Shown: positions 1,226 through 19,682 of the stretch, in pieces
Position numbering within the stretch: position 1 is the first letter of the stretch
Layout: each line of letters opens with the position of its first letter
Virus genome (UHGV): UHGV-1354005
Reading direction: 5' to 3' (one strand)
Origin: a virus
Length of the DNA stretch: 41,941 nucleotides
Position numbers and translations under genes: made by a program
Notes under the pieces: model-generated
The model's input: the letters and a program-made list of their open reading frames with translations, nothing else
The model's database searches: none
What the model was told of the DNA's origin: nothing

Positions 1226-1268
1226 CCGCACTACGGGCGTAAAATGCGTTAGTAGTGCGGAGTTTTTG
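1226..1268 (+). terminator. rho-independent terminator-like hairpin
   Basis: Stem ccgcactac (1226-1234) pairs with gtagtgcgg (1252-1260), followed by a ttttt run. Confidence 0.5.
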
Positions 1269-1284
1269 TTTGTATAGGAAAACA

Positions 1285-2431: not shown

Positions 2432-2434
2432 CTG

Positions 2435-2788: not shown

Positions 2789-2793
2789 GCCTA

Positions 2794-3602: not shown

Positions 3603-3996
3603 ATTCTAGTTCTTGTTTTGCCAACCTATACGCCTCACGACCGTCTAGTCCGGGTGTTCTCATTTGGATTCCTACTGCTTTTTCAAGGCGTTTGAGGACA
3701 ATCTTACCTTTTTTGTCTATGATAGCAAGAGGGTCTTTGTAGCCGCTAACGATAAGTATTCTCATGCAAAGGATGATAACGTCTGCACATTCAAACGCCA
3801 TTTCCTTCTTGTTTTTGGCCGAAAGAAGTTCTTCTACCTCTTCCTTGAGATGTTTTTTGAGCTGTGGGACAGTCTCTTTAACCCCTAAAAATTTACTGAA
3901 AACATTACATATTTGTTTGGCTATATTGTACACTCTAACCTTCCTTTCATATTGAAACAAATCCATGCTACGCATTATCTCCTTTCGTATTGCCAA
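3586..3996 (-). CDS. MazG-like nucleotide pyrophosphohydrolase
   Basis: LKEEVEELLSA followed by EMAFECADVIILC matches the all-alpha NTP-PPase ExxE..ExxD metal-binding signature. Confidence 0.6.
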   Translation of the reverse strand: MAIRKEIMRSMDLFQYERKVRVYNIAKQICNVFSKFLGVKETVPQLKKHLKEEVEELLSAKNKKEMAFECADVIILCMRILIVSGYKDPLAIIDKKGKIVLKRLEKAVGIQMRTPGLDGREAYRLAKQELEYGKDN

Positions 3997-4418
3997 CTGG
4001 AAAGCTCTTCCTTGGCTTCACTTGCCTTTTTGTAGGCTTCCTCGGTTCCATAAATTTCAGAGGAAAAGAAGCAAGCAATCGTGCATTCATCGTCTATAGA
4101 TGTAGAGTAAACTTCATATCCTTCAACAACGTCGTTCTCGACATTTTCAGTCCTGTATTTTGCTCGTATTTTATAAAACGAATTTTTCATAATATTTTTT
4201 TTCTTTAGAATTTCTTTTGCTCTATCTATGGCTTCGGAGAGAGACGGATAGAGTTCTAGCTCTTCTTCTACTCTCCAAATATTTCGAAAATCGAGTGATG
4301 TCCACCTATTGATTTTATTTGCATACTTTAAATCTTTTTTTACAGTTACCTTGTAGTGATGATTTGTGCAACCAATAAGCAACACACCATCTTCTACCGA
4401 GTCAATAGTGTATTTCAT
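3975..4418 (-). CDS. hypothetical protein
   Basis: 147-aa ORF in the leftward operon with no motif recognised. Confidence 0.4.
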   Translation of the reverse strand: MKYTIDSVEDGVLLIGCTNHHYKVTVKKDLKYANKINRWTSLDFRNIWRVEEELELYPSLSEAIDRAKEILKKKNIMKNSFYKIRAKYRTENVENDVVEGYEVYSTSIDDECTIACFFSSEIYGTEEAYKKASEAKEELSSWQYERR

Positions 4419-4423
4419 AGTTT

Positions 4424-4777
4424 TTACTCGAAATCACCTTTCATCCAATAGTCAGGAAGATTATTGAAGGCTTTATTATCGGGATTACGCTTGCACCTAG
4501 TACACGAATTGGAGCGCAACCTTAACCACAAATGGGTACAGTTTTGGCAATGTTTTTTAGGTGTTTTGTTTGTAATATTCCTGCATATGCGGCGCCACCT
4601 CCAAGCGTCTTTCAGTACTTCTCCATAGTGCGATTTCTTGTCTCGGTAGGTGTGAAGCACATCCGGGGACAGAGGTATGCCTCTATCTTTCAACAGAGAA
4701 CGTATATAGGTGTGAATAACAACTGTCGTTGCCCATGCCGCACCATATTCCCAAAAAGATTTCTGTTCTTTGTTCAT
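4424..4777 (-). CDS. Cys-rich zinc-finger protein
   Basis: C-terminal CQNC..x..CTRC cluster in a 117-aa protein. Confidence 0.4.
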   Translation of the reverse strand: MNKEQKSFWEYGAAWATTVVIHTYIRSLLKDRGIPLSPDVLHTYRDKKSHYGEVLKDAWRWRRICRNITNKTPKKHCQNCTHLWLRLRSNSCTRCKRNPDNKAFNNLPDYWMKGDFE

Positions 4778-5039
4778 TTTCTTTTCACTTTGTATATGAT
4801 GTATTGGATAAGAATGACAAATAACAACACAATCGCAAGCGAGACAACGAGAATGTCTAATAAATCAACAATTATCATAGATTTTCACCCTTTTCTGGTT
4901 CGTCGTCGTTGCATTCTAAATAAACACGAATAGCCTCTAGGAAGCCTTTATACTTACCCGCAAGATAGAGGTAAAAACCAAAGGAACCAATGAGCGCTAC
5001 AAATACTACAGTCTGTAAAATGTCAAACATGGAGTCCTC

Positions 5040-5420
5040 CTAATATCCTCTTAGTTCTTCAACGTATTTTGTGACGTCTTCTATGTCGCCAAAGTCTTTA
5101 GTGCCTTGCTCAATAGCCTTTTTAAGTCTTTTTTCCAGCTCTTCTTGGGTGATTGTTTTCGGATGATGTGTAACCTTGTTTAAGTTTTTATGCATAACTA
5201 AGGAAGAGACAAGAATATCGGTTGCGAATCTCCTGATTCTTAAAAGAGTTTCTTCCTCCGAGAAACACGGGTCGAGTTGATAACCACACTTAGAACATTT
5301 AGGGATATATGCCTTCTTTCCAAAAGGATAGCCTTGTTTACCAAGGCCAGTACACACGATATCCTTAACAATGAAATACTCGTTATGACATATTGGGCAT
5401 TTTGGATTTTTTACGCTCAT
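5040..5420 (-). CDS. zinc-ribbon protein
   Basis: CPICH ... CSKCGY gives four Cys as two CxxC pairs. The protein is 126 aa. Confidence 0.45.
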   Translation of the reverse strand: MSVKNPKCPICHNEYFIVKDIVCTGLGKQGYPFGKKAYIPKCSKCGYQLDPCFSEEETLLRIRRFATDILVSSLVMHKNLNKVTHHPKTITQEELEKRLKKAIEQGTKDFGDIEDVTKYVEELRGY

Positions 5421-6562
5421 TTTTTAACTATCCTTTCTTTCTGTTTTTTTTCGACGATATAGCTTCCAAAGATTTTATTGAATTGTTCGTTCGATGCTTT
5501 TCTAGACTGCTTCCCGTTCACAATGTTTTGGTGTTTGTGAAAAGCCTCTTCCAGCTTAGAGACTGAAACACTAACGGCTTCCATCATGTCCCCTAGAGGA
5601 ATGACTTGCTGAACCCTAGATAACCCTTCGTTTTTAAAGCTACGAACCGTATTTCCTTCTTTTAAACCAAGGCCGTCAATCTCTTCGCCATTTTTCAGCA
5701 ACTCATAACATGATTCTTCTATCTCTTTGGCCACCTTCGAGGCCAATTTAGCTGTAAAATATAGCTTAGAGCGTTCTTCTGGATTCATTTGTTTCAGCTT
5801 AGAAGAAAAAGCTGTAGCGGGAGTAGTGATTGTTTGCACCACCTCTAACGGCTTTTTGCATTCAGCAAAACCCTTGCAGTACCTGCAATAGCTGTTAGCT
5901 TGAGGTGGAAGGTCCTTTTTGGTGCGTTCGCATATCTCAATGACTTCTTTTTCTGCCTCTTTGATGTCCTCTTCGCTGTACCTCACAATAACAGGATAAG
6001 AAGTCACCAGAGGTTGAACAATGGCACAAGAGACTGATTTTATTTTGCAGTCCTGATAATTCCTTTCGATGTGTTGCTTGCAACATAGGGCCAACCCTCT
6101 AAGCTGGTGGTTTATTTGTGTGGACTCCGGCTCTAAAGGCCCTGTCTTGTAGTCGATAATCAATAAATGAAATCCATCTTCGTCAGACTTGCCTAAAACC
6201 AAGTCGGGCTTACCAGAAAAGAGTGCATTATCCCCATCGAAAAAGAAACACCTTTCCTCCTTCATCAATTCCTCGAACTTGTCTTCTCCCGCCCAAATCG
6301 ACGCAACTTCGGTCACAATTCTTTTGCATGCAAGCATGAGGTTCGTCTCTTCTTCGGTGAGTAGTATGTTTTGGTATGCAAGGTATTGATGAATCCTGTT
6401 GCCTCTTTCAGCCATTTCAGAGGTTGTCTCTACTCCTTCAACGTCATATCTCAATGAGTGCGGACATAACGCAAGACGTGCTAGGCTGGAACATGAAGGC
6501 AATCCTTGTCTTTCCGTATCTTTTGTTTTCATTATTTCTCGTGTATTTTTTTTGTTATTCAT
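5417..6562 (-). CDS. PD-(D/E)xK nuclease of the Cas4/RecB-like family with Fe-S cysteine cluster
   Basis: GKPDLVL and LLIIDYKTG are motifs II and III of the D..(D/E)xK core. QLRGLAL is a QxxxY-like motif. There is an N-terminal Cys, and CRYCKGFAEC supplies three more Cys, the typical Cas4/AddB four-Cys cluster. A C-terminal extension of about 130 aa is of unknown function. Confidence 0.7.
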   Translation of the reverse strand: MNNKKNTREIMKTKDTERQGLPSCSSLARLALCPHSLRYDVEGVETTSEMAERGNRIHQYLAYQNILLTEEETNLMLACKRIVTEVASIWAGEDKFEELMKEERCFFFDGDNALFSGKPDLVLGKSDEDGFHLLIIDYKTGPLEPESTQINHQLRGLALCCKQHIERNYQDCKIKSVSCAIVQPLVTSYPVIVRYSEEDIKEAEKEVIEICERTKKDLPPQANSYCRYCKGFAECKKPLEVVQTITTPATAFSSKLKQMNPEERSKLYFTAKLASKVAKEIEESCYELLKNGEEIDGLGLKEGNTVRSFKNEGLSRVQQVIPLGDMMEAVSVSVSKLEEAFHKHQNIVNGKQSRKASNEQFNKIFGSYIVEKKQKERIVKK

Positions 6563-6782
6563 CTTCTGGCTCCCAATCTACATGCGCCTCAAACTCATAA
6601 TCCATACAATGTAAACAAGGTTGAAGATAATGAGCACGGTTCCAATATTTACAGTTTTCGCAGCTTTTGACAGGTTTTCTTTTTGAAAACTTGCGTGCAA
6701 TTTTAGACAGTAGATGTTTAAGCGTTTTCATTGTTTTCTTTCTTTTTGAATATTGGCGATTCTGGCGACTTGTCTTCTTCAT
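6555..6782 (-). CDS. small zinc-finger protein
   Basis: CENCKYW..x..CLHC in a basic 75-aa protein. Confidence 0.35.
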   Translation of the reverse strand: MKKTSRQNRQYSKRKKTMKTLKHLLSKIARKFSKRKPVKSCENCKYWNRAHYLQPCLHCMDYEFEAHVDWEPEDE

Positions 6783-7572
6783 TGGAGAAAGCTTCGTCTT
6801 TACTTATGGCCCCCGTTTTAATGGCGTTGAAGAGACCAATAAGCATTACGATTTCAGATTCCTTACTAGTCTCAATTTTGTGTTTAAGGTAAGCCTCAAG
6901 CATTTCTTTGGAGACTCCGATTTTGGAAAAGGCTATTACACATCCATTTATTCTTTCAGCAATGGGTGTATCTGTGGCTCTTAGCGTGTTTTGGCAAGCC
7001 TCTGCCGCCTCTTGCCTAATGAAGTCCGGTAATACCGCCCAAATGCACGCCCTGATGCGTCTAGAGGCCATATTAGCGCAAAGTTCATAAATGTCTCTAT
7101 CGGACGTAAGAGGATATCCACCGTCTTTTGTGTCCCTGTGGTGCGGAACAGAAAAGGCTATCTCCCTTCTTATGTTGTTTTCTTTGTCCCAACAGAAAGC
7201 TATACAGTCGGAGCAAACCCTTCCTTTTTCATCTACATGTTCACCTATCTTTCTCCACCCAGCTTCTGCGTTCCCATAAGCGGTAAGGCACGCATTTGCT
7301 AAATGGATTGTCTCTCCTGAAATACTAGAGCCTCCCCTTTTGTATTCGAAGAATGCGGTGTTAGCCAAATGACGGAACGAGCAAAGCTGTCTAATTTTGG
7401 AGGAAACCTCCATCATGTTTCTCGGCATTTGCTTTGCTATATATATAGAGGCAAGCGCCTCTAGCGATTCTTTGTTGGAAAGCACGTTAGCAAGCGGATT
7501 TCCAGCAAGAGGTGCTATCATGGACAAGCCTTCTGCCGGGACTGTGGTCAATTGTTCTTGGGTGTCTGACAT
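6718..7572 (-). CDS. hypothetical protein; possible single-strand annealing protein partner of the nuclease
   Basis: 284 aa, placed immediately upstream of and co-oriented with the Cas4-like exonuclease. That matches the classic exonuclease plus SSAP gene pair. No family motif was recognised. Confidence 0.3.
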   Translation of the reverse strand: MSDTQEQLTTVPAEGLSMIAPLAGNPLANVLSNKESLEALASIYIAKQMPRNMMEVSSKIRQLCSFRHLANTAFFEYKRGGSSISGETIHLANACLTAYGNAEAGWRKIGEHVDEKGRVCSDCIAFCWDKENNIRREIAFSVPHHRDTKDGGYPLTSDRDIYELCANMASRRIRACIWAVLPDFIRQEAAEACQNTLRATDTPIAERINGCVIAFSKIGVSKEMLEAYLKHKIETSKESEIVMLIGLFNAIKTGAISKDEAFSNEEDKSPESPIFKKKENNENA

Positions 7573-7599
7573 GCCCTCATTGTATCTTTTCTCTCACAC

Positions 7600-8046
7600 A
7601 TGGCAATCTTTTTTTATTTTTTTTCTTGTGCATGTCAAAACATGTGGTACAAAAACGACATGACGAAAGCACTACCAACAGAACAATTAGAAGCATTCTC
7701 CAAGTTCGCCAATACTAACGAAGCCCTTTGCAAGCTCATGATGCAACGGGTGGGGTTCAACATCACTCCAATGGTGTGGAATAAGGCTAAATGGATGCCT
7801 ACACAACTTTCCGTAAAGAAGCTCACGAACCTTCGAGCTTTTTATCCAGAAGCATTTGGTTTAGATGATGAACCTAATAAAGATTTTTTGAAATCTCTTT
7901 ATTACCTCCACATTTCAAATAGAACCTTCTCTGGGGAAATTACGCCGCTAATTGAGGACAAGGATTTTATTACCCATATGCCCTATGCTAACTTTGTTTT
8001 ACCCATTGACGATTTCACAAAAAACGCCCTTTCCAAATTCATGTAA
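7600..8046 (+). CDS. hypothetical protein (start probably the later ATG giving MTKALPTEQ)
   Basis: First gene of a short rightward unit, divergent from the leftward operon. Confidence 0.4.
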   Translation: MAIFFYFFSCACQNMWYKNDMTKALPTEQLEAFSKFANTNEALCKLMMQRVGFNITPMVWNKAKWMPTQLSVKKLTNLRAFYPEAFGLDDEPNKDFLKSLYYLHISNRTFSGEITPLIEDKDFITHMPYANFVLPIDDFTKNALSKFM

Positions 8047-8055
8047 AATCAGGAT

Positions 8056-8688
8056 ATGAATCACTATTCCAAGGACTATCCCTTAGAAGAAATGGAACGC
8101 ATTTCGGAACCCAAACTAGCAAAAGACTGCCTGAACTTAGAGAAACTATTGGAAGGATTAGCCAAAATACCGCAAACAACAGAACAGGAAGCGGAGGAAT
8201 GGCGGCGAAAAGAAAAAGAAAAAGAACGCATAGCATCATGGAAAAAACGATTGAGGCAATCCGGCGTGCCTCAAGGGTTTTATGATGCTTGCGTGAATGG
8301 AAAGATCGACAAGAGCCTAATATTTCCAAGCCTGAAAAATTTAAGTAGCGGGTGCTTATTTGTTTGCACCCCGGAAAAAGGTAAAACCTTTTCCGCATGC
8401 GCTTTGATATCGCAGGAATTATGGAATGGCAGGTCAGCTTTTTACTGGAAAGCTCCTGAACTGGAAAGAGAAATGGCCAGTTATAAAAAGGACGTGTGCC
8501 TGATAAATAGAGCGCAATCAACCCAGCTCTTAGTGCTGGACGATTTTGAGGGAGTGCGGATGAGTATGAATTCATCCTCCGATTTTATCGCCTTGCTAAA
8601 AAAAAGAAATGATTCTAATTTTTCAACAATTTTGAATTCAAGAAAACGAACCTTTTTTCTCGAACAGATAGAAGAGGCGGTAAGTTAG
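8056..8688 (+). CDS. DnaC/IstB-like AAA+ ATPase (helicase-loader-like)
   Basis: LFVCTPEKGKTFSA is a P-loop with a GKT core (cf. GPPGTGKTHLA). LLVLDDFEGV is a Walker B motif (cf. LLILDDLG). The protein is 210 aa. Confidence 0.5.
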   Translation: MNHYSKDYPLEEMERISEPKLAKDCLNLEKLLEGLAKIPQTTEQEAEEWRRKEKEKERIASWKKRLRQSGVPQGFYDACVNGKIDKSLIFPSLKNLSSGCLFVCTPEKGKTFSACALISQELWNGRSAFYWKAPELEREMASYKKDVCLINRAQSTQLLVLDDFEGVRMSMNSSSDFIALLKKRNDSNFSTILNSRKRTFFLEQIEEAVS

Positions 8689-8728
8689 TTTGTACTTAAC
8701 CCTTAGAAAACAAAAGTGTAATAAAAAA

Positions 8729-8759
8729 CCCCTGTAGCCTTTATTTTAGGCTACAGGGG
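8729..8759. terminator. bidirectional terminator hairpin between convergent genes
   Basis: cccctgtagcc and ggctacagggg form an 11-bp perfect stem around a tttatttta loop. An A-run lies upstream and a T-rich tract downstream. Confidence 0.5.
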
Positions 8760-8786
8760 TTGAATTTGGTGTATTTTTATGACAAA

Positions 8787-9473
8787 CTATTGAACTCTTT
8801 TTTCGGGTATTAGTTTGCTATTGAATGAGTAGTATTTTTTTGAGTAATTGTAGGTCTTGGAGTATTTAGAATATCCGGCTTTGTGATCATAGTAAATCTC
8901 ATCACCATAAAAAGAGCAGTAACTATATTCTTTTTTTTGATAAGAGTCGTTCGAAAAATAAGCAAATTTGTTTTTATCCGGTCTTTCGAAATTGCCATAA
9001 AACAACATCTTTCCTTTTTTCCAAAAAACAAATTTACTTGAACCTATAACAGAATTGACCATATCATCAATGCCTTCATTTGTTTCCTCGATATCTGTTT
9101 TTCCAAATGCGGGCAAAAACAGATAACGGAAGAACGTTTCACTGTCTGTGAGGTCTCCTTTATTTTTTAGTGATAGAATACCATTGTGGCAAAAATACCA
9201 ATTATCGCCGTTCCACCCATGAACATTTTTTTCTGAAATAGATCCATGAGTTTTGATGCGAGCGTGAAGAAGGACTATATAATCATTAGGGATTTTTTCC
9301 CATGTGGCTACAACCTCCTTTTTCAGAAGAGTTCTAATTAGAAATGCCGGTTTGTTGTCTTCATCCCCTCTTTTAAATCCTAGCAGAAAAAATCCGTCCG
9401 GATTATTTGTTAAGCAATTTTGAAAACGTTGATTGCCGATATCTTTCTTGATCCCGTAAGCAATTATACACAT
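8787..9473 (-). CDS. class-II glutamine amidotransferase-like Ntn hydrolase
   Basis: It starts MCIIAYG, with Cys2 as the N-terminal nucleophile after Met removal (cf. MCGIVG in PurF/GlmS). LLHARIKTHG matches HxRxxTxG. YFCHNGILSLKN matches the HNGxIxN oxyanion-hole motif. Confidence 0.65.
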   Translation of the reverse strand: MCIIAYGIKKDIGNQRFQNCLTNNPDGFFLLGFKRGDEDNKPAFLIRTLLKKEVVATWEKIPNDYIVLLHARIKTHGSISEKNVHGWNGDNWYFCHNGILSLKNKGDLTDSETFFRYLFLPAFGKTDIEETNEGIDDMVNSVIGSSKFVFWKKGKMLFYGNFERPDKNKFAYFSNDSYQKKEYSYCSFYGDEIYYDHKAGYSKYSKTYNYSKKYYSFNSKLIPEKRVQ

Positions 9474-9485
9474 ATTTTTGTTTAT

Positions 9486-9881
9486 TTATTGTTTGTTTGT
9501 TGCGTTTTTGGTGATGATATTTTTGATTCCCTCCATGAGAAAATGAGCTTTATTCTCTTCTTCGGGCGTTTCGTAAAAGATTTTTACGAAAGTATATTGT
9601 TGATATGTGGGATAGGTCATTTTGACTCCGTTTCTAATTAGGTAGTTGATTGTTTCTAGCCTTATTTTGTGAAATAGGTCTTGAGATAGCGGCCTATGAA
9701 AAACATTTGAGAATTCTAGGTTGAGGCTACCTATCAAACCAGAAATAGAGCATTCTAGCTTTATTTGTTGTCGCAACAAAGAGGATCTCTCTTTCTTTTG
9801 CTCTTTCATTGGTTCTTTCTTTTGCTCTTTCATTGGTTCTTTCTTTTGCTCTTTCATTGGTTCTTTCTTTTGCTCTTTCAT
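9486..9881 (-). CDS. hypothetical protein with N-terminal (MKEQKKEP)x4 tandem repeat
   Basis: 131 aa. A 24-bp nucleotide repeat encodes four in-frame Met-initiated octapeptide repeats at the N-terminus. Confidence 0.4.
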   Translation of the reverse strand: MKEQKKEPMKEQKKEPMKEQKKEPMKEQKKERSSLLRQQIKLECSISGLIGSLNLEFSNVFHRPLSQDLFHKIRLETINYLIRNGVKMTYPTYQQYTFVKIFYETPEEENKAHFLMEGIKNIITKNATNKQ

Positions 9882-9889
9882 TGGTTCTT
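9789..9889. repeat. perfect 24-bp tandem repeat, about 4 copies
   Basis: Plus-strand unit ctttcttttgctctttcattggtt repeated head-to-tail. It is read directly from the sequence. Confidence 0.9.
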
Positions 9890-9973
9890 CAAAGACCTAA
9901 TGCGAACATCAGGCTAAAGTAAATCAATAGTCCAAAAATAATTATAATTGTATCGATAATTATTTTTTGAATT

Positions 9974-11230
9974 TTATTTTTTATATTCTTCATATTTTTT
10001 TATAAGTTTTTTTAGCCGTTCGGTTCTAGCGTTCTCCATTAAGTAATTTTGCAAAAATAGTCTAATACTTATTAAATCGCTTTTATATAGATTTTGTGCT
10101 TCCACGGAATATTTGTAAATTTGATAGCAAAAATCTAAAATGGATTTTATAGAGATAGAATCAACAGTTCCTTTGCCACGTCTAAATTCTACGGTCTTAC
10201 TGTTCGTGAAATTTAGTTCGAGATATCTAGTATCGCAATAAGGTTGAAATATTTTTTCCAACCCTAAATCTGATGCCGCATTTGGATGAATGCCGTATTC
10301 CATTAGCCTTTGTATTTGTGGTTCTGCGAGGCAGTAACCACCATTTGTTCTTCCGAAAAGCTCCGTAATAAAATCATACGGAAAACAGTAAAATGCCTTT
10401 TTTAGCAAAACACAAACTTTTTTATTAAAATTAATTTTAGACAAATGTATGTGAAAGCCTGTTTCTGTAGCTTTTTGAGAATAACAAGAAAATCGAGGCA
10501 TGAAATCTTTTGTTAATATGTCAATCCCGCCGCCCTCTCTAATAAGTTCCTCGAAAGGCATAGGGATTGTGGTTATTTCTGTTCCTCCGTTTTCTTCGGA
10601 AAGACTTCCGTCATGTTGCAGGTAGAAGAAATTGGATTTATTCTCAAAAATATATTTATTCCGCGCATATACTTCTAACTCCAACCCTACAAGCGGTTCT
10701 TCTAAGTTGTCGTTGTCAGGACGGGTCCAAACATCCGGGAAATAGTGATAACTTCTTTGTCGTGTTGATACAAAAATCTTTGGAATGTCTGGATGTTCAA
10801 AAACGTCTTTTCTTGAGGTGAGTGTGGGTATGACGTATTCTGTTAGATACTCAATATTGTGCTCATTTAGTTTTTCCCATAAAATATTTTCAACAAAAAA
10901 TTTTAGGATTTTTACATATTCCGGTGAATATGTTTTATATAAAATTAAGTCAGGCGTTAGAATTATTCTGTTTTTCAACCGTTTATTTAATTTAACCATA
11001 TCGGAATTTTTTATTAGTCTGACGTTATTTTTCCTGTAAATACAACCCCTAAATTCTCTTTCTCCGATATATTTCAAGAAAGCGGTTGTTTTTCTTCTGG
11101 ATTTTGACAAGAATTTTGCATCAATATTTTTGTATGATACATCAGAAAATTCTTCTTCAAGAATTTCTTTGTAATTTCCTTTTACAAAAGAGAATAATAT
11201 CTCCAAAGATTTTTTTTCGATTGCGTTCAT
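9974..11230 (-). CDS. glutamine-synthetase-like amidoligase candidate (Amidoligase_2-like)
   Basis: Motifs appear in GS catalytic-domain order. They are GLELEV (ExE metal-binding strand), HDGSLSEENGGTEITT (acidic and Gly-rich nucleotide/metal region) and GFHIHLS (HxH). The protein is 418 aa and sits adjacent to the GAT-II gene. Confidence 0.45.
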   Translation of the reverse strand: MNAIEKKSLEILFSFVKGNYKEILEEEFSDVSYKNIDAKFLSKSRRKTTAFLKYIGEREFRGCIYRKNNVRLIKNSDMVKLNKRLKNRIILTPDLILYKTYSPEYVKILKFFVENILWEKLNEHNIEYLTEYVIPTLTSRKDVFEHPDIPKIFVSTRQRSYHYFPDVWTRPDNDNLEEPLVGLELEVYARNKYIFENKSNFFYLQHDGSLSEENGGTEITTIPMPFEELIREGGGIDILTKDFMPRFSCYSQKATETGFHIHLSKINFNKKVCVLLKKAFYCFPYDFITELFGRTNGGYCLAEPQIQRLMEYGIHPNAASDLGLEKIFQPYCDTRYLELNFTNSKTVEFRRGKGTVDSISIKSILDFCYQIYKYSVEAQNLYKSDLISIRLFLQNYLMENARTERLKKLIKKYEEYKK

Positions 11231-11233
11231 TTT

Positions 11234-11809
11234 TTAAAAAATAATACGGCTATTGTTGTTTTTGTTGTTGATTTCGGAATAAGCTTCCCACAATTCTTCC
11301 ACATGTTGCCTTGAATCATGGAGTTTTAAAAAAAGTTCTTGTGATAAATTCACGAGTATTCCTTTTTTATTAAGATTTATTGCACAATGTCGATAGTATT
11401 TTAGTGCTAAATTCTTATTTGACGTAAAACAACGTGTGTGTGGATAGTCGGATTTTAGGCTAGATCTTCTGTATTCCGGGAAATGCCCTAAAACTTGCTT
11501 TGTTTTGTAATCATACCAGTTTACAGGTTTCACTCCGACAAACAGAAATCCAACAGCAGATCCGCCTCCAGTTTTACGCATAATGGGTAGATAGCCGATT
11601 GTGTTTCCTTTTATTGTGTTAGGTGTTATATATTTTTTTACGATTTCGCCTGTTTTAGTATTTTCTAGAACTAGAAAATATTTAATACTGATTGATTTTT
11701 TTAAATATTCAATAATCTTTTCGTTGTTTTCACATTCTAACATTGTAGATACAAGAGGCGTTCTGTTTCTACAAGTCAAGTATAGTTTGATTATATATGT
11801 TGTATTCAT
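11234..11809 (-). CDS. hypothetical protein (island)
   Basis: 191 aa, AT-rich codon usage, in the same operon. Confidence 0.4.
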   Translation of the reverse strand: MNTTYIIKLYLTCRNRTPLVSTMLECENNEKIIEYLKKSISIKYFLVLENTKTGEIVKKYITPNTIKGNTIGYLPIMRKTGGGSAVGFLFVGVKPVNWYDYKTKQVLGHFPEYRRSSLKSDYPHTRCFTSNKNLALKYYRHCAINLNKKGILVNLSQELFLKLHDSRQHVEELWEAYSEINNKNNNSRIIF

Positions 11810-12242
11810 TTTTTTGTTTTTCTTTTTCTTCTCCTGTTTCTAGGAAAATTTTTAAATCAAGTTCCCTGTTGTTTTTTAACAAACTAAATTTTTGTTTGTT
11901 ATCAACATAATCAATACTTAATGCGAAAGCGTCATTTTTATGATAAACTTCTTTCTTTAATTCTGGAAAGGTGTAAATTGCGAGTTCGTTTTTTATTGTT
12001 TTTGCTAATGATCCGTAAATTAACAACCCTTTAAATTTAACTCCTACAAAATCATTGATGAAAACAAAGCGATTTCCTACCCTAAAAAAAATCAAAGAAT
12101 CTTTTTTTTGGCATTGTAGTCGGAGTGCGTTTTGGATGAATCCAAGATTTCTTCTTTCCTTTTTAGGAACTAGGTATAAAAAGTTTTTCCCTTTTATCAC
12201 CTTTGATACTTTAGATAAAAAACAATCAATATTTTCTTTCAT
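11769..12242 (-). CDS. gamma-glutamyl cyclotransferase (GGCT/AIG2)-like candidate
   Basis: FKGLLIYGSLAK resembles the hhhYGSL/YGTL signature of the GGCT/AIG2/ChaC fold. The motif is not N-terminal, so this call is weak. Confidence 0.3.
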   Translation of the reverse strand: MKENIDCFLSKVSKVIKGKNFLYLVPKKERRNLGFIQNALRLQCQKKDSLIFFRVGNRFVFINDFVGVKFKGLLIYGSLAKTIKNELAIYTFPELKKEVYHKNDAFALSIDYVDNKQKFSLLKNNRELDLKIFLETGEEKEKQKNEYNIYNQTILDL

Positions 12243-12525
12243 TTAGTTCTAACGTTTTAAAGTTAAACCTATATTCTCGATTTTCCTTTAGTGGACATTT
12301 CCGAAAATCGCTAATCAAATCGCCTTCCGGACGTCTTTCTATTCTGAAAATCAATCTCCTAGGGTGTTTGTTGGCGATAAAGACTTCTATGATTGAGCCT
12401 ATTCTCCAATCATCTTTTATCGCCGAAAAAAAACACCGAAGACCGTGATTGAAATTTAGATAGGAGGTAGGGAAGATCCGCCTTTCTTCTTGTGGGTTTT
12501 CAAATTCAAATTGATACACTTTCAT
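12226..12525 (-). CDS. hypothetical protein (island)
   Basis: 99 aa, overlaps neighbouring genes. Confidence 0.35.
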   Translation of the reverse strand: MKVYQFEFENPQEERRIFPTSYLNFNHGLRCFFSAIKDDWRIGSIIEVFIANKHPRRLIFRIERRPEGDLISDFRKCPLKENREYRFNFKTLELNERKY

Positions 12526-12528
12526 TTT

Positions 12529-12858
12529 CTAACGGGAAGAATAATTGATAAGCACTTCTTGCGGCAAAATAACTTTAGATTGAAATGATATTCCAATAAT
12601 CGGCAATATTGTTTTTTCCTCTTTATCAACTCTAAAATTTTTTTTGTTCAGGCGACAAATATATGAAAACTCTTCCAATCCCGCATCGATCAACACGCAT
12701 TTAAGCATTTCTCTTTCAAAAAAGCCACACATTGGCTTTTTTAGCTCATAAATAATTTCATCTTCGATTGTTTCTCTTAGTTTTCTTTTTATATTTATTG
12801 TTGTTTTTTGACTCAAAAAACAACTTAAACATCCATATACATCTTTAATTATTTTCAT
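12529..12858 (-). CDS. hypothetical protein (island)
   Basis: 109 aa, tightly packed with its neighbours. Confidence 0.35.
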   Translation of the reverse strand: MKIIKDVYGCLSCFLSQKTTINIKRKLRETIEDEIIYELKKPMCGFFEREMLKCVLIDAGLEEFSYICRLNKKNFRVDKEEKTILPIIGISFQSKVILPQEVLINYSSR

Positions 12859-13172
12859 TTTATGAATATTTCTTTTTCAGTATTTTTATAAAATTTTGAT
12901 CTTCTTATTTGTTCGGCATAACTATTTCTCATTGAAATAATATCAGATACCGGAAGTTTCATTATTTTTAATTCTTCAATATGTCGAATTTCATTAAATA
13001 TGAATATATTAAAAATTTCTTTTTTGAGCGCCTCTTTTTCAGAATTTTTAAAAATTCCTATAAAAAAAACTTTTTTGTTTTTCAGGGAAACAATGAGAAA
13101 AAAATCATCCATTCCGACACGTTCGTAACACTCTAGCAAATATTCAGTTTTCATGAGACATAGTGTAATCAA
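12855..13172 (-). CDS. hypothetical protein (island)
   Basis: 105 aa, with a 4-nt start/stop overlap downstream. Confidence 0.35.
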   Translation of the reverse strand: MITLCLMKTEYLLECYERVGMDDFFLIVSLKNKKVFFIGIFKNSEKEALKKEIFNIFIFNEIRHIEELKIMKLPVSDIISMRNSYAEQIRRSKFYKNTEKEIFIK

Positions 13173-13521
13173 TAAATTTGAATAATTTTTTGGGAGTTAG
13201 ATAGTTAAGAGGCAATCTACTTAAACAACATTTGTCTTTTCTTCTGCATATAATATCAAGCTCTTCCTGCATTCTTCTTGTTTGGATCTGCACCCATTCT
13301 TTACTTATTCTTTTTTTGTCAAAACATTCACAAGGTGCAAATCCATAATCCATTAGGAAAAAGGTGTGATAATTTTTGACAAAGTAACCTTTCAGATAAA
13401 ACGGCCATAGTTTATTTTTTTTGTTTGCGAAAAAATCGCCCTTAGATTTGGAGAAAAATACGTTTGGAAATATGTAAAAATATTCCGACTCATCATTCAT
13501 GAAAATATAAGGTGTTTTCAT
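13144..13521 (-). CDS. hypothetical protein (island)
   Basis: 125 aa, rich in aromatic residues. Confidence 0.35.
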   Translation of the reverse strand: MKTPYIFMNDESEYFYIFPNVFFSKSKGDFFANKKNKLWPFYLKGYFVKNYHTFFLMDYGFAPCECFDKKRISKEWVQIQTRRMQEELDIICRRKDKCCLSRLPLNYLTPKKLFKFIDYTMSHEN

Positions 13522-13808
13522 CTATTTAACCCCTCTTTTCTCATCTTGTTGACAAGCGAAGAAATCTCTTCCCCTCCTGCAATCACTGAAATTTGCCTCC
13601 CTGTTGCCACAATAGCGCCCCTATTTTCGCCGTCTTCATAAATAAGACTAAACGACATCACTTGTCTTTTACCCACGATTGTTGATAGATAATTCCCGTA
13701 CTCTTCAATAACTTCTTTTTCCGTGTTTAGATTTTTCAAACATCCTAACACAACAACCCTATATTTCGCTTCCATGTTTTTTATTCTTTCATAGCTACTA
13801 TTCATCAA
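13518..13808 (-). CDS. hypothetical protein (island)
   Basis: 96 aa, with a 4-nt overlap. Confidence 0.35.
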   Translation of the reverse strand: MMNSSYERIKNMEAKYRVVVLGCLKNLNTEKEVIEEYGNYLSTIVGKRQVMSFSLIYEDGENRGAIVATGRQISVIAGGEEISSLVNKMRKEGLNR

Positions 13809-14064
13809 AAACTGCGAAACAGTAAAAATAACAAGTTGCCCTTTCTAGCATTTTTGCCTCTTCATCACTGCATCCTGTTTGTGCGTAATCGTTCAAATTG
13901 CCTAGCATGCGTTTCCTTACGTTTTTCAATGTGGGATTCTTAAAATATTCACCGTCATCAAGGTCATCCACCATTTCAAGTGCGTATTTTCTTATCTCTT
14001 TATTTGCTCCCTTTAGTCTTTCATAGAGCAATGCTTGCCTTGTTTTCTCTCTATTGTATCTCAT
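13798..14064 (-). CDS. hypothetical protein (island)
   Basis: 88 aa. Confidence 0.35.
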   Translation of the reverse strand: MRYNREKTRQALLYERLKGANKEIRKYALEMVDDLDDGEYFKNPTLKNVRKRMLGNLNDYAQTGCSDEEAKMLERATCYFYCFAVFDE

Positions 14065-14431
14065 TGTTTTTTTTGTTAAATATAAGTTTTCCTTTAATGC
14101 TAAAAGCCGTTGTATAGTCTCCTCTTTCCGTTTCCTCCAATTCTAGCCCAGCTCCTGCAAAAACTTCCCTTATTATCTCCCTTACCTTCTCTTTCTTTTC
14201 TTCCGATTCTCTATTCGAGTTTCCGAAAAAAAACAACTCTAACGTGTTAGCGTATTCCGTAATTGCGCCGTCTTCTACAAACTCCATAAAGATTTCTTCA
14301 AACCCTCCCACTCTTTCGTTTATCTCTCTTATTGCCTTTCGCTTCAACGGAAATACGTCTAACAACGGATATCTTTCTTCTATCTGCTCTTGTGTTCCTT
14401 TCATGTCTTTACTATATCTTTTTTCTCTCAT
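14051..14431 (-). CDS. hypothetical acidic protein; first gene of the leftward island operon
   Basis: 126 aa and Glu-rich. It is transcribed away from the 1.1-kb control region. Confidence 0.4.
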   Translation of the reverse strand: MREKRYSKDMKGTQEQIEERYPLLDVFPLKRKAIREINERVGGFEEIFMEFVEDGAITEYANTLELFFFGNSNRESEEKKEKVREIIREVFAGAGLELEETERGDYTTAFSIKGKLIFNKKNNEIQ

Positions 14432-14439
14432 TTGTCAAT

Positions 14440-15550
14440 AGCTTTTTATTATTTTTTTTCTCTCATCAACTTCTTTTTTTCTCCTATTCCCCCTCTCTTC
14501 CTTCATACCTTTTTGTCAACCTTTTTCTTCACTTCCTCCTGTCATAACTTTCCGGGGGGGGCTTTAGGGGGGGGGACGTTCCCTCTTCCTCCGTGTTTCT
14601 TCTCCCTCTTTCTCGTTGCGGGGGGTTGTAGGGGTAACGGCTAATCACGTCGAACGGGACTAACCAGCTTGCCCTCCCTCCTCCTAAATCCTCCTCCCTC
14701 CTAGCTGGCAAATGAGTTCATCATTGGATTTTTCGAAAAAAAGGCCATTTCCTGACATTTTGGAGTAAGGCGTTGATAAAGTGTGCGCTTAGGCAAGGCG
14801 AAAAATCTACATGCGAAATGTTGACAAATTTTCAATTTTGTGCATATCCGATTGCCGCGTTGTCAAGCTTGCCTCTAAAAAAGCGGGCAAGGGCGGCTAG
14901 CCTCAAGCATCAAGTTGCGGTTAGTGATCCGCTTGACAAGGGCGATTTTTGCACCGTTATCGGTAAAACGCAACAGTTTTTTTAGTGGAGCGTGCGCTTC
15001 TTGTGTGCAATCTTCGTAACTCATTGATACTCTATCATACTTCGCATAACACACATAATGCAAAGTCGGAAGCCATAGAGGTCAACCTTGAATAACGCAC
15101 TACAAGCCACCTAGCACGCGCCGCCTTTCCCGGATGATATGTGTATCGGCTCACCTCTCAAAAGGCCCGTACAAGCCAACCTCGCAAGCCGTTTTTCGGC
15201 ACAACCGTAAGAATTAGAATAATTATTGCAGTTTTGCCTAGTTTCTCGCATGTTTCGCCGCACGCACGCAGACCAGCATGAGGCAAGGACGACGGCCATG
15301 AGAGGGCGCAACTACCCCTAGGCGCTTGGTGTGTTGCCATGCCATACAGGGGGCGCCGGGGAAAAAGTCGCGGGTGTTTTGCGCTGGACAAAGAAGGTAT
15401 CACGCTGTGTAATAGGAAAAAAAAGAAAAAGAGATAGGAAAAAAGTAAAACGGCCTATAGGGAGAAAACGTGGTTTGTTAGAGAAAAAGAAAAAGGAGTA
15501 AAAAAAAGGTAAAAGGAAAAAATAGTATGTATAAGGAGAAAAAGAAGTTG
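14440..15550. promoter_or_regulatory. divergent control region (early-left and late-right promoters; possible origin or ncRNA)
   Basis: About 1.1 kb with no convincing ORF. It holds a CT-rich tract, G8/G9/G6/G4 runs and inverted repeats gttgtcaagcttg and gcttgacaag. It also includes ttgacaaattttcaattttgtg. Composition switches polarity across this region. Confidence 0.5.
14554..14575 (+). other. G-quadruplex-forming motif (G8-ctttag-G9)
   Basis: The sequence reads ggggggggctttaggggggggg, so four or more GGG tracts with short loops are available. G6 and G4 runs lie at 14620-14634. Confidence 0.5.
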
Positions 15551-15551
15551 A

Positions 15552-16064
15552 TTGGAGAGAAGAAGAGGGAAGAGGAAGAAAGAAAGAATAAATAAGAAAG
15601 AAAGAAGGAGAAGGGAGAAGAAGAGAGAAATGACAGGGAAAGAGCAGATGGAAGAGTTGTGTAAGGAGTTGAGAGAGGAGCTTAGGAGTGGAGTGATAAG
15701 GGGATTGGGAGAGGGGTTGGCGAGGCGAGGGATGAGTCAGGCGATATTCAAGCGGATGGGAGGGCCGGAGGTATGGGCGAGGGTGAGCAAAGGAGGAGTG
15801 AGGAGGGAAGGAGGAGAGGGGAAAAAGGAGGAAGAGGGAGAGTTGAAGAAGGGAGAGCTGTGTGAGTTTTTAAGCAGGGTGATAAGAGGGCGGGAGCTAG
15901 GGATGAGTGGGAAGGAGAAGATGAGTGCGGTGGGGTTGTACATGAGGTTGAAGGGGTGGGACAAGGTGAAGGAGAAGGAGGAAGAGATGGTAGGGGAAGA
16001 GTTGGTAGAGCTGTTAGGAGGGAGTAAAGGAGGAGGAGAGAAGAATGATACGGAGGAGGGTTGA
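15552..16064 (+). CDS. low-complexity E/K/R/G-rich ORF (possibly a highly charged protein, possibly a compositional artefact)
   Basis: 170-aa ORF in near C-free purine-rich DNA. Its amino-acid content is that dictated by GA-rich codons. Confidence 0.25.
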   Translation: MERRRGKRKKERINKKERRRREKKREMTGKEQMEELCKELREELRSGVIRGLGEGLARRGMSQAIFKRMGGPEVWARVSKGGVRREGGEGKKEEEGELKKGELCEFLSRVIRGRELGMSGKEKMSAVGLYMRLKGWDKVKEKEEEMVGEELVELLGGSKGGGEKNDTEEG

Positions 16065-16099
16065 CAGAGGGTATAAGGATGAAATAAAGTAAAGGCGGA

Positions 16100-16807
16100 A
16101 TGAGAAAGAACAGCGAAGGCGAGATAAGAGTGAGGTGTGCGGAGGCGGAGCGAGGATTTCTGGCAGGGGTGAAGGAGATGGTGAAGATGAGGGCAGAGAT
16201 GGGAGTGATGCCGTGGGGGAAGCATGTATTTTATCCAAGGATGTTGCACAAGGCGAGGCCGCAGAAGGTGAGTGATTTTTTAGTAGAAGATGAGAGGTGG
16301 TATTTGAGTGTGAGGGAGGTGGATATGGAGAAATGGGGGGAGAAGCATCATTTATACCGGAGTGCTAGTGGGAAGTATTATTTGGGGTTATTGTTTAAGA
16401 GTACAAAGGCGAGGAGTGTGAGGAGGAAGATAAGCCTTGGGACGCTAGACGAGGAGGTGGCGAAAGAGCGGAGGGAGTTGTTTTATGAGGAGTGGGAAGG
16501 GAAGCATCTGACATGGGCGCAATGTGAGGGAGCGAAGTGGAACATGAAGGTGTCTGGGTGTGCGGTGATAGGGAGCAAGAGTGCGTTGGAGAGGAAGGCG
16601 AGGGAAATGCAGGAGAAGGCGAACCGGGAACAGGCGAAGGCAATATGCAAGGAGTTGGCATTAAAGCGAAAGGCGCAGGTAAAACTGGAAGGATTTAAAA
16701 AGAAGACGGAAGAGATAAAGAGGCGGAGGGTGTTGATGGTAGGAGGGGTAGAGAAAATAGGAGACGCCGTAGTAAGGAGGACGAAGAGAAAAGGAGTGGA
16801 AAGGTGA
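16100..16807 (+). CDS. hypothetical protein
   Basis: 235 aa with more diverse composition (W, Y, H, C, F) despite the purine-rich DNA. Confidence 0.4.
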   Translation: MRKNSEGEIRVRCAEAERGFLAGVKEMVKMRAEMGVMPWGKHVFYPRMLHKARPQKVSDFLVEDERWYLSVREVDMEKWGEKHHLYRSASGKYYLGLLFKSTKARSVRRKISLGTLDEEVAKERRELFYEEWEGKHLTWAQCEGAKWNMKVSGCAVIGSKSALERKAREMQEKANREQAKAICKELALKRKAQVKLEGFKKKTEEIKRRRVLMVGGVEKIGDAVVRRTKRKGVER

Positions 16808-17013
16808 AAGCTATGAAAGAAAAAGAAGTAGGAATAATGGTAAAAGAGAAGAAGGAAGGAGGGTTGGAACTGCATTTGTTTCCGAGCAAGGAGGCAATGG
16901 CAAGGTGGCGAGGTGAGGACAGCGAGCATGACGTGGAGGGGCGATATCAGGAGTGGGTATTGCCAGTAGAGGTATTGGAAGACCTTTGGGCGGCGGCGCA
17001 AGGGGAAGAGTAA
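16804..17013 (+). CDS. hypothetical small acidic protein
   Basis: 69 aa, with a 4-nt overlap to the upstream ORF. Confidence 0.3.
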   Translation: MKAMKEKEVGIMVKEKKEGGLELHLFPSKEAMARWRGEDSEHDVEGRYQEWVLPVEVLEDLWAAAQGEE

Positions 17014-17144
17014 AGTTTTTTTAAACGTCCGGTGCAAGTGGCATCCTCAAATAACAAACAAACAATAGAAGTTGGGTGGAGGCGAGGAGGCGTGGTGCGC
17101 GAACCGCTACGTCCCGGACGGCCTATGCCCAGCAAAGGGAAAGT

Positions 17145-17705
17145 ATGAAAATAATCGTAGATATAGGGCATGCCCGGAAGACAGGGGCGGAAGGGAATGG
17201 GTTGGAAGAGCATGAGGTATCATGCGTAGTAGCGGGCTATCTGGTGGAAGAGTTGGGAAAACTTGGACATGAGGTGCAGGTGTTGGACTTTCCGAGGATG
17301 AGCAATGCGGCAGACTTGAACGAAACGATAAAGGCGGCGAATGCGTCTGGGTACGAGGCAGGAGTATCGTTGCATTGCGACAGCGCAAGTAAAATTGTAG
17401 GAGGCAAGGAGGTATTGAATCCGGAGCCACATGGGGCGCATGTATGCTTTTATCCGAGTAGCGTAAAAGGAGCACGGCTGGCGAGTGCGATAGCAGGTGA
17501 GCTGTGTGTATTGTTGCCGGGGAGGGCAAACAAAGTGCAGGGGCGAGCGAACCTTGCGATATTGAGGAAGACGAAGATGCCGTTTGTATTGTGTGAGTGT
17601 GGATTTATAAGCAACCCGGAGGACGCAGAGGTGATGAGGAGGCGGCCAAAGGAAATAGCGGAAGCAATAGCGAAAGGAGTGGACGCCTATGCGAGAGGAA
17701 AGTGA
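17145..17705 (+). CDS. N-acetylmuramoyl-L-alanine amidase (Amidase_3 family) endolysin
   Basis: From Met 17145: KIIVDIGHARKTGAEG (cf. IxIDAGHGGxDxGA), GVSLHCDS (cf. SIHADA) and FVLCECGFISNPEDAE (cf. EVGFISNPEE). The track start at 17076 is a GTG. Confidence 0.75.
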   Translation: MKIIVDIGHARKTGAEGNGLEEHEVSCVVAGYLVEELGKLGHEVQVLDFPRMSNAADLNETIKAANASGYEAGVSLHCDSASKIVGGKEVLNPEPHGAHVCFYPSSVKGARLASAIAGELCVLLPGRANKVQGRANLAILRKTKMPFVLCECGFISNPEDAEVMRRRPKEIAEAIAKGVDAYARGK

Positions 17706-18101: not shown

Positions 18102-19682
18102 ATGGAAGTAAGCGAGATAGCCAAGTTGTTGAAAGACCCGATGTGGAGGATATCGCATTTGTATGAGATAAAACTCACGGACGGGAACATCATACCATAC
18201 AAGCCGAGGAAGTTTCAGGAGGAGTTGCACCGGGCGTGTTACTGTGAGGGGAAGCGTCGTTTTTTGATACCAAAGAGTAGGCGTCAGGGGTGTTCTACGG
18301 CGATAGGTGTGATGATGGCAGACATGGCGGCTTTTGAGGAGGGGTGGAAACTGGCGTTGGTGGACAGGACGCTGGGGGACGCAAAGGAAAAGCTGACGGA
18401 CATTGTGAAGGTAGCCTTGGACAGTTTGAAGCGGAAATTGCCGGGGTTGTTTGAGATAAGCTATTTCCAGTCCCGCATCATAGTGAAGATGACAGGGAGG
18501 AGGGCCAGCGAGATAGTTGGCGGTAAATATTTCCGAGGCAGTGGGCTTGGTTTTGCCCACATATCAGAGCTTGGTACCATAGCGACGAGCGAACCGAAGC
18601 GAGCGGCAGAAATAGTAAACGGCACATTCCCGGCGGCCAAGGACGGCTTTATATTCGTGGAGACGACGGTACGAGGCGGGAAGCGAGGGGTATTCTACGA
18701 AAACGTGATGAATGCGTTGAGCGTGCCGGAGGAGGAGCGTGGGGATAAAGATTTCCATGTGGTATTTTTGCCGTGGTGGAGTGACGAGAACAACAAATCG
18801 AAGGGGGGAGAGGCGATAAATGCGGCCACAGAGAGTTATTTTGAGACGCTTAGGAGCAAGAGCGGGATTGTTGTAACCGAGGAGCAAAAGCGTTGGTGGC
18901 AACAGGCCAAGAGGCAACACGGGGTGTCGATGAATGAGGAGTACCCTTCGACCTTGGAAGAGGCTTTTGAGGTTCCGATGGAGGGTGCCATATTGGAGGC
19001 GGTGTTGGACAAGGCAGTACAGGAGGGCGCTTTTCGGAAGTTGGCCTATGACGCGACAAAGCCATGCTATTGCACATGGGACTTGGGCGCGCCGCTAAAC
19101 ACGATTAACCTTGTATTCCAGCTGGACGGCCCCTTCATCAACGTATTGGAGTTGGACAGCGGGTTGCATGCAAGCGAACGTGTGGCAGAGCGTGTAACAA
19201 GGCTCAAAAGCAAATATCCTACATTACAGGCAAACTTCCTTCCGCATGACGGAGGGTACATGACGGACACGGGGATGACACAGGCGCAGATGTGGCAGGA
19301 GGCAGGGTTGCCGGGCATACAGTTGTTACCGAAATCGAAAGACAAATGGATAGGCATCAATTACCTTTTGGGTATGTTTGACCTGTTCCGGTTTGACGTG
19401 GAGGGGACAGGCAGGGCGTATAGCTACTGGTTAAGCTACAGGTGCAAGCCGGAGGTAAGCGAGGGAGGCATATTCAAGAATGAGATTGTGCATGACAATG
19501 CGTCCCATTGGGCAGACCCGTTGAGGTATGTAGCGGAGGCGAAAATGAACAATTTGCTTGTGCAAGGTCCAACAACCCAAGACTATAAGGCAGGAATAAC
19601 ATGTACATTTGGGAAATATCATCGTGAGCGAAACATTGGACATAACTGGCGAGGACGGTTTGAGCGTACTTTCCGAATCTGA
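18102..19682 (+). CDS. terL: terminase large subunit
   Basis: 526 aa. The N-terminal ATPase region has PRKFQEEL and a KSRRQGCST P-loop-like segment. The C-terminal region looks like a nuclease with acidic residues (LPHDGGY, WADPLRY). The portal gene follows, as in the canonical order. Confidence 0.75.
   Translation: MEVSEIAKLLKDPMWRISHLYEIKLTDGNIIPYKPRKFQEELHRACYCEGKRRFLIPKSRRQGCSTAIGVMMADMAAFEEGWKLALVDRTLGDAKEKLTDIVKVALDSLKRKLPGLFEISYFQSRIIVKMTGRRASEIVGGKYFRGSGLGFAHISELGTIATSEPKRAAEIVNGTFPAAKDGFIFVETTVRGGKRGVFYENVMNALSVPEEERGDKDFHVVFLPWWSDENNKSKGGEAINAATESYFETLRSKSGIVVTEEQKRWWQQAKRQHGVSMNEEYPSTLEEAFEVPMEGAILEAVLDKAVQEGAFRKLAYDATKPCYCTWDLGAPLNTINLVFQLDGPFINVLELDSGLHASERVAERVTRLKSKYPTLQANFLPHDGGYMTDTGMTQAQMWQEAGLPGIQLLPKSKDKWIGINYLLGMFDLFRFDVEGTGRAYSYWLSYRCKPEVSEGGIFKNEIVHDNASHWADPLRYVAEAKMNNLLVQGPTTQDYKAGITCTFGKYHRERNIGHNWRGRFERTFRI

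Follow-up and report, generated by a model that had tools for sequence, protein, structure and literature searches.

The DNA analysed here is the virus genome UHGV-1354005, a stretch of 41,941 nt (hereafter, the window) that corresponds to the whole or most of a tailed-phage genome. Between positions 8787 and 14431 it carries an island of 12 leftward open reading frames (ORFs), which from right to left encode proteins of 126, 88, 96, 125, 105, 109, 99, 157, 191, 418, 131 and 228 aa. Adjacent ORFs share 4-41 nt or lie 3-12 nt apart, with the single exception of a 92-nt gap. Two of the genes, g418 and g228, encode a predicted amidoligase of the glutamine synthetase (GS) type and a predicted class-II glutamine amidotransferase (GATase). 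They are a functionally linked phage gene pair and the sole recognisable functional unit in the island, which is organised as follows:

8787..9473, minus strand: g228, predicted stand-alone class-II (N-terminal nucleophile, Ntn) glutamine amidotransferase or glutaminase subunit, 228 aa
9486..9881, minus strand: g131, protein with an N-terminal MKEQKKEP tandem repeat, encoded between the amidoligase and GATase genes
9974..11230, minus strand: g418, predicted Amidoligase_2 or GS-fold carboxylate-amine ligase, 418 aa
11234..11809, minus strand: g191, lineage-restricted, directly upstream of the amidoligase gene
11769..12242, minus strand: g157, lineage-specific, with LIYGSL at residues 74-79
12226..12858, minus strand: g99 and g109, lineage-specific small ORFs
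12855..14431, minus strand: g105, g125, g96, g88 and g126, the stretch of the operon nearest the promoter, which is variable

Compared on its own with the Pfam family PF12224, g418 obtains 15.3 bits (E=0.018), which is below the curated cutoff of 22; its match to PHROG 2443, 'amidoligase', has E=3.3e-6. An exhaustive HMMER search retrieved 299 distant homologues at E<=1e-3, all of them aligning to residues ~155-413, and 52 of the 60 homologues that were aligned match PF12224 individually at E<=1e-3 (best 3e-13). Ten residues are invariant across the 60 aligned sequences (E184, E186, D207, S209, E218, H260, H262, R294, E348 and R350). The motifs that they form (E-x-E, D-G-S, E, H-x-H, R and E-F-R) presumably correspond to the residues with which GS-family enzymes bind metal and phosphate. 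The catalytic domain extends over residues ~155-413, whereas the N-terminal ~150 aa make up a lineage-specific helical region. No solved structure in the PDB is detectable by sequence, even with a profile, and GenBank phages gave no tblastn match. The catalytic fold of g418 is nevertheless GS-like, and its structural neighbours are YbdK/GCL, gamma-glutamyl-methylamide synthetase, 1-naphthylamine GS and PafA. In BFVD, 51 viral proteins resemble it, and most of the named ones are annotated "amidoligase" and belong to phages of many hosts. On its sequence, g418 is a GS-like Amidoligase_2 enzyme with predicted ATP-dependent amide-bond formation, as a first-pass annotation of this DNA had proposed.

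The same annotation had recognised a class-II glutamine amidotransferase in the island, and this was borne out by g228. The protein starts with Met-Cys (MCIIAYG) and matches Pfam GATase_4 with E=2.8e-4 and 20.3 bits, below the curated cutoff of 23. Further matches are weak and concordant: PHROG 18128 'aminotransferase' (1.2e-3), NCBIfam GlmS and PDB 3mdn. In a 37-sequence alignment (A2) the residues C2, N24, G27, H70, R72, T75, H96-N97-G98 and D110 are invariant. By comparison with the class-II amidotransferases (GAT-II) of the PurF type, we take C2 to be the nucleophile, R72 the residue that binds the alpha-carboxylate of glutamine, N97-G98 the oxyanion hole and D110 the residue that binds the alpha-amino group. 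Of the relatives, 25/37 match GATase_4 and 12/37 match GATase_6 at E<=1e-3, and the family profile finds GlmS, PurF and the YafJ-like 3mdn and 1te5 in the PDB with E values from 3e-8 to 8e-4. The same motifs are covered when g228 is aligned to 3mdn and GFAT. The Met-Cys start is called in 51 of 60 relatives, and most of the others have Met-Cys a few codons inward. Taken together, g228 is classified as a class-II (Ntn) glutamine amidotransferase with predicted glutaminase activity. The invariance of the Asp assigned to alpha-amino binding argues that its substrate would be free glutamine or a free gamma-glutamyl group, and not a peptide-internal residue.

The link between the two genes came from the analysis of 74 distant viral amidoligase loci. 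A homologue of g228 is present at 59 of them (60 homologues, found by iteration), and phmmer with g228 as the only query against the ORFs of these loci reached E values down to 1e-30. In 58 of the 60 cases the GATase gene directly follows that of the amidoligase on the same strand. A median of 3 nt separates the two, and in 21 of 49 pairs the genes overlap or abut. This arrangement, with the GATase directly downstream, so short a gap and many overlaps, suggests translational coupling and equal stoichiometry of the two proteins. The order amidoligase then GATase on the same strand is kept in the window. Such pairs are found in phages of Pseudomonas, Mycobacterium, Arthrobacter, Vibrio and OM43, and also in crAss-like viruses and one giant virus. 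No recurrent enzyme family was detected among 91 non-redundant neighbours of the distant pairs, and gamma-glutamyl cyclotransferase (GGCT), ATP-grasp and PF14395 are absent from their top families. Clustering of the neighbours by BLAST in search of partners recovered just one over-represented phage lineage (WhiB, sigma factor, terminase). A 526-aa ORF at another locus (L076:2446-4026) joins an amidoligase domain (residues 10-260) to a GATase domain (262-460); it was rejected as a true fusion because the GATase part lacks Cys1 and profile positions 1-12, and a frameshift or an error of assembly is its probable origin. The first-pass annotation had described a combination of three enzymes, linked in phages and to its knowledge not biochemically characterised in any of them. 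The linkage stands for the pair, and no paper on the biochemical characterisation of an amidoligase-GATase pair was found; papers that annotate the pair echo predictions credited to Iyer et al. (2009). The three-enzyme combination does not stand, and the pair, already predicted and widely annotated in phages, is not new as a combination.

From the families, folds, catalytic residues and pairing described above, we infer a complex of the two proteins, and we put at about even the reading in which they are the subunits of a glutamine-dependent amidotransferase, the glutaminase supplying ammonia with which the ligase amidates a carboxylate. The N-terminal Cys of g228 would hydrolyse free L-glutamine and release ammonia. 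With ATP, g418 would convert a carboxylate, most probably a glutamate-type carboxyl, into an acyl-phosphate and would then capture the ammonia, or possibly another amine, to give an amide. The leading candidate substrates would be a carboxylate of the cell envelope (the peptidoglycan stem peptide) or a small metabolite. The coupled amidotransferase is favoured because two proteins suffice for it, whereas a cycle of ligase and hydrolase needs intervening steps and there is no third partner; in the same way, the lack of GGCT and ATP-grasp partners narrows the plausible chemistry to this reaction. That such phage pairs form a class of two-subunit amidotransferases amidating a host cell-envelope carboxylate early in infection is a long shot, and it is no less doubtful, within the same reading, that the pairing of a GS-fold synthetase with a separate Ntn glutaminase had gone unrecognised. 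In peptidoglycan of the Veillonella type, cadaverine or putrescine is reported to be joined by an amide bond to the alpha-carboxyl of D-Glu and to anchor the outer membrane. If an envelope carboxylate were the substrate, amidation of the D-Glu carboxyl would block polyamine linkage and remodel the envelope, with superinfection exclusion or lysis priming as the outcome.

Several points weigh against the coupled amidotransferase. No biochemical data were found in the literature for any member of the pair, and g418 and g228 each score under the Pfam curated cutoffs by themselves. Classical GAT-II amidotransferases are usually fused to the synthetase, and the sole apparent fusion detected, at L076, is without the N-terminal Cys and is a likely frameshift artefact. 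In the window, unlike in almost all other pairs, the gene of g131 splits the two genes (500 nt). The assignment of the host depends on one database label (Veillonella sp.). Finally, GATase_4, the family most often matched by the relatives of g228, also includes gamma-glutamyl amidohydrolases such as EgtC, and g228 may have a hydrolase role.

This last point leads to a second explanation, which we regard as unlikely: g418 would join the gamma-carboxyl of glutamate to an amine, either a polyamine (putrescine, cadaverine) or an amino acid, and g228, as an EgtC- or PuuD-like gamma-glutamyl amidohydrolase, would later remove the glutamyl group, a host metabolite being re-routed or sequestered in the process. 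All characterised structural neighbours of g418 use the glutamate gamma-carboxyl, the nearest Pfam family of g228 is GATase_4, and its PDB matches include the stand-alone YafJ-like proteins 3mdn and 1te5. EgtA/EgtC and PuuA/PuuD are precedents for pairs of a ligase and a hydrolase. However, with two enzymes and no conserved third one among the 91 neighbours, a bond would be made and then broken in a futile manner, and scans with Pfam, PHROG and NCBIfam revealed no oxidase, methyltransferase or other tailoring enzyme among the island ORFs.

A role in nucleic-acid modification, in which the pair would decorate phage DNA bases (hypermodification of the thymidine type) or nucleotides against restriction, appears improbable. 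It is favoured by the co-occurrence, in some viral contigs, of amidoligase and amidotransferase genes with 5-HMUDK and aGPT-Pplase genes (PMC8989533). In addition, the pair adjoins replication genes here (DnaC-like, exonuclease) and in the phages MEP402 and LUZ24. On the other hand, the 24 larger window ORFs that were scanned gave no match to a hydroxymethylase, a 5-HMUDK-type kinase, aGPT-Pplase or TET/JBP, and none of those families is in the top 25 for the 91 neighbours of distant pairs.

Tagging in the manner of pupylation is more improbable still. Here a small protein such as g131 would have its C-terminal Gln deamidated by g228, and g418 would then ligate the resulting Glu to a lysine of a target. 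The protein g131 has no family match in the libraries scanned, and the copy number of its repeat varies among relatives, so that its length ranges from 107 to 140 aa. Its C-terminal Gln is kept among close relatives only: in the sister clade, made up of phages with a 92% identical portal, the repeat unit is KEKTNKPM and the homologue ends ...YGKN. Moreover, g131 is missing from 58 of the 60 distant pairs and no small ORF co-occurs with the pair elsewhere, so that a co-inherited small tag with a conserved C-terminal Gln/Glu was not found. The invariant alpha-amino-binding Asp of g228 also misfits a peptide-bound Gln.

Apart from g418 and g228, the island contains ten small ORFs, nine of which the first-pass annotation had considered as possible substrates, carrier peptides or specificity factors. 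None of the ten has homologues beside the distant amidoligase-GATase pairs, and they therefore show no sign of being substrates or carrier peptides; they are early genes specific to the lineage, and no link between them and the pair could be demonstrated. Two deep searches with g191 found this lineage only, and a fold search gave no GGCT-type match. As a conserved partner, in the position of LUZ24 gp17, g191 was rejected since it has no BLASTP similarity to gp17. The best conserved small ORF is g99, with 69-72% identity in the sister clade, whereas the five promoter-proximal ORFs are patchy in close relatives (46-89% identity) and replaced or missing in some; the loci L112-L115 carry different small ORFs in this stretch.

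The third enzyme of the proposed combination, a GGCT-like protein, was not recovered. No island ORF matches GGACT, AIG2 or ChaC in Pfam at E<=1. GGCT-type matches were likewise absent from PHROG at E<=0.1 (island ORFs other than those of 88 and 126 aa) and from NCBIfam at E<=0.5 (island ORFs other than those of 105 and 96 aa). With hhalign, each of the ten small-ORF families reached a probability of at most 1% against the phage GGCT LUZ24 gp22 (UPF0131, AIG2/GGCT), the value for g157 being 1.0%. A motif scan identified LIYGSL of g157 as the only GGCT-like string in the island; it lies in the middle of the protein, unlike VFVYGTL of LUZ24 gp22, which is at the N-terminus. The family scans, hhalign and the position of the motif together rule out a GGCT in the island. 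Neither an ATP-grasp (RimK-like) protein nor a second COOH-NH2_lig (PF14395) was matched in Pfam by ten island ORFs at E<=1 or by the other two at E<=0.1, and the ten island ORFs scanned with PADLOC gave no match to anti-phage defence families. For annotation, these results are a caution: the 12 genes of the island do not make up a 12-gene system, and a four-residue "YGSL" is not a GGCT.

The distribution of the island among relatives provided information about its age. All close relatives (portal at least 97% identical) whose contigs span the slot carry the cassette, and the identity of its proteins there is 46-98%, compared with 94-100% for core genes. The sister clade has the same gene order and low GC (0.26-0.37), and its proteins are 76% (g228), 69% (g99), 51% (g131), 49% (g191) and 43% (g418) identical to those of the window, compared with 90% for the core protein terL. 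The amidoligase of the window (9974-11230) and that of the locus L115 (7575-8825) share 38% identity over the N-terminal 150 aa and 46% over the catalytic part. Between the sister clades the ligase has evolved unusually fast in comparison with its partner GATase (43% and 76% identity, respectively). If the pair did act on the host envelope, this difference would reflect shifting recognition of the substrate or target. In a clade with a 61% identical portal, the slot is filled by unrelated genes at ordinary GC, with neither an amidoligase nor a GATase. Because the cassette is common to the close lineage and the sister clade and the slot differs in the 61%-portal clade, the block is an old, fast-evolving, compositionally distinct early module in a replaceable slot, and not a recent insertion. 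Of the features of a moron, deviant GC and a terminator are present, and presence/absence polymorphism among close relatives is not. The block had been described as a horizontally acquired moron, a view made dependent on the low GC not being shared by the whole phage lineage; the low-GC cassette is in all spanning close relatives and in the 92%-portal sister clade, and the view is abandoned. The idea of a recently acquired 12-gene ligation system with three enzymes (GAT-II, amidoligase and GGCT) and small ORFs as substrates or carriers is scarcely credible: two of the three enzymes are real, and GGCT, ATP-grasp, GAT-II and amidoligases do combine in LUZ24-type phages, but the island has no GGCT, ATP-grasp or second ligase, its small ORFs are lineage-specific and the cassette is common to the whole close lineage and the sister clade.

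The description of the locus as 12 tightly packed leftward genes in an AT-rich block was confirmed by a windowed GC analysis. The GC content is 0.323 in the island and 0.462 in the rest of the window; 1-kb windows range from 0.278 to 0.366 inside the island, and every one wholly outside has at least 0.38. The GC content at third codon positions (GC3) per gene is 0.20-0.39 in the island compared with 0.42-0.64 in most flanking genes, and one ORF of the left arm (3975-4418) is likewise low (0.34). The contrast in composition is real and large. Considered over the whole window, the composition falls into three tiers: 0.32 GC in the island, 0.41 in the replication arm (1-8786) and 0.48 in the late/structural region, where GC3 reaches 0.64. 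The island is best explained as a leftward operon of a tailed phage, presumably expressed early, with the following elements at its ends:

8727..8761, minus strand: strong intrinsic terminator with a 14-bp stem (8 GC pairs) followed by TTTTATT, which closes the leftward operon
14432..15551, no strand assigned: non-coding divergent region of ~1.1 kb between the island operon and rightward genes, presumed control region

The stem of the terminator is palindromic and could also serve the convergent DnaC-like gene. Two rightward genes (7600-8688, plus strand), a 148-aa ORF and the DnaC/IstB-like loader, are wedged between two leftward blocks, and this wedge meets the island at the single palindromic terminator (8727-8761), which could act bidirectionally. 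At the other end, the divergent region contains no ORF with any support. A match to TTGACA-16-TATAGT lies at 14438..14411 (minus strand), but the region has no more promoter-like matches than chance would give. Between 14432 and 16100 the plus strand is pyrimidine-rich, with G-runs at ~14553-14627, and becomes strongly purine-rich from ~15400. The region displays mirrored pyrimidine and purine tracts and imperfect mirrored inverted repeats 940-1330 nt apart. The GC skew is up to 0.76 over 15500-17000, and the ORFs at 15552-16064 and 16100-16807 are extremely purine-rich. The divergent region may serve as an origin or packaging site, or it may be regulatory.

The remainder of the window contains the following recognisable genes:

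left arm, ending at 8688, plus strand: DnaC/IstB-like loader, convergent with the island
left arm: PD-(D/E)XK/DUF2800 exonuclease
17076-17705: Amidase_3 endolysin
18102-19682: large terminase (terL)
20353-21978: portal
23604-24596: major head protein
among the structural genes: protease-like protein
25851-30143, plus strand: 1430-aa tail-region ORF matching PHROG tail-protein families
32971-39165, plus strand: 2064-aa tail-region ORF

No integrase match was found among the window proteins scanned, and the scans of the window with Rfam and for tRNAs gave no matches. By megablast, GenBank phages have no DNA-level similarity to the window, whereas IMG/VR and other metagenome collections contain many relatives of ~40-41 kb. 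The GTDB representative genomes contain no close relative of the amidoligase or the portal, and no prophage relatives. One contig of 111,781 bp (ENA ERZ28437000 k119_70692, locus L112) carries a near-identical copy of the phage at 89.6-110.9 kb; this copy may belong to a prophage, or the ~41-kb genome may have been concatenated during assembly. The sole clue to the host of this uncultivated phage is a near-identical protein labelled "Veillonella sp." in NCBI, and the host is possibly Veillonella. Genomes of Veillonella have ~39% GC. If this is the host, the late genes lie well above and the island well below the host GC.

The chemistry proposed for the coupled amidotransferase, in which ammonia from a glutaminase is used for the ATP-dependent amidation of a carboxylate, is the same as that of MurT/GatD (PMC3267633) and of the AsnB-type amidotransferases of meso-diaminopimelic acid (mDAP). 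As in the phage pair, MurT and GatD are two separate, co-transcribed proteins. They differ in that MurT has the Mur-ligase fold and GatD is a class-I (triad) GATase, whereas here a GS fold is combined with a class-II Ntn enzyme; for both MurT/GatD and AsnB, the likeness is an analogy of mechanism and implies no homology. YbdK (1tt4), gamma-glutamylcysteine ligases, glutamine synthetases and PafA/Dop share only 9-15% identity with g418. To our knowledge, none of the GS-fold structural matches of g418 has been described as working with a dedicated glutaminase partner.

Among phages, the LUZ24 type (Bruynoghevirus) carries what papers citing Iyer et al. (2009) call a 'putative peptidoglycan modification module', composed of COOH-NH2_lig, Amidoligase_2, GAT-II, ATP-grasp (RimK) and GGCT (UPF0131). 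In the literature, the cell-wall role of such modules is a prediction only. LUZ24 resembles the window in having an Amidoligase_2 gene followed by a class-II GATase gene in the early region beside replication genes, and LUZ24 gp19 matches the GATase profile at 1.6e-9. In contrast, LUZ24 gp18 fails to match the amidoligase profile at E<=1, the LUZ24 GATase has 510 aa compared with 228 aa here, g191 is unrelated to gp17 despite the same position, and GGCT, ATP-grasp and a second ligase are missing from the island.

The closest cultured example of the pair is gp06/gp07 of MEP402, a phage of OM43 (Methylophilales), where a PF12224 amidoligase and a PF13522 GATase were described as auxiliary genes whose role is not known (PMC10580990). 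Among cultured phages, g228 matches only MEP402 and MEP401 in tblastn, at 28-31% identity. MEP402 gp06 matches the amidoligase profile at 3e-34 and gp07 the GATase profile at 7e-71. Both phages have a two-gene, co-directional pair with the amidoligase first, near replication genes, and in the 7.8-kb stretch of MEP402 examined no GGCT or ATP-grasp is annotated. The two genes of MEP402 overlap, whereas the window has a repeat-protein gene between them; the MEP402 ligase is larger (548 aa) with another N-terminal region, and the host and family (Zobellviridae) are unrelated. Pairs of an amidoligase and a class-II GATase are among the commoner enzyme-like gene pairs annotated in phage early regions, and the window pair is a diverged copy of this known, predicted phage module. 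Its local peculiarities are the inserted repeat-protein gene and the N-terminal extension of the ligase. To the systems already described, the window adds a diverged branch overlooked by standard Pfam thresholds, a self-contained two-gene module that in this branch has neither GGCT nor ATP-grasp, and a pair of sister cassettes whose ligases have diverged much more rapidly than their glutaminases.

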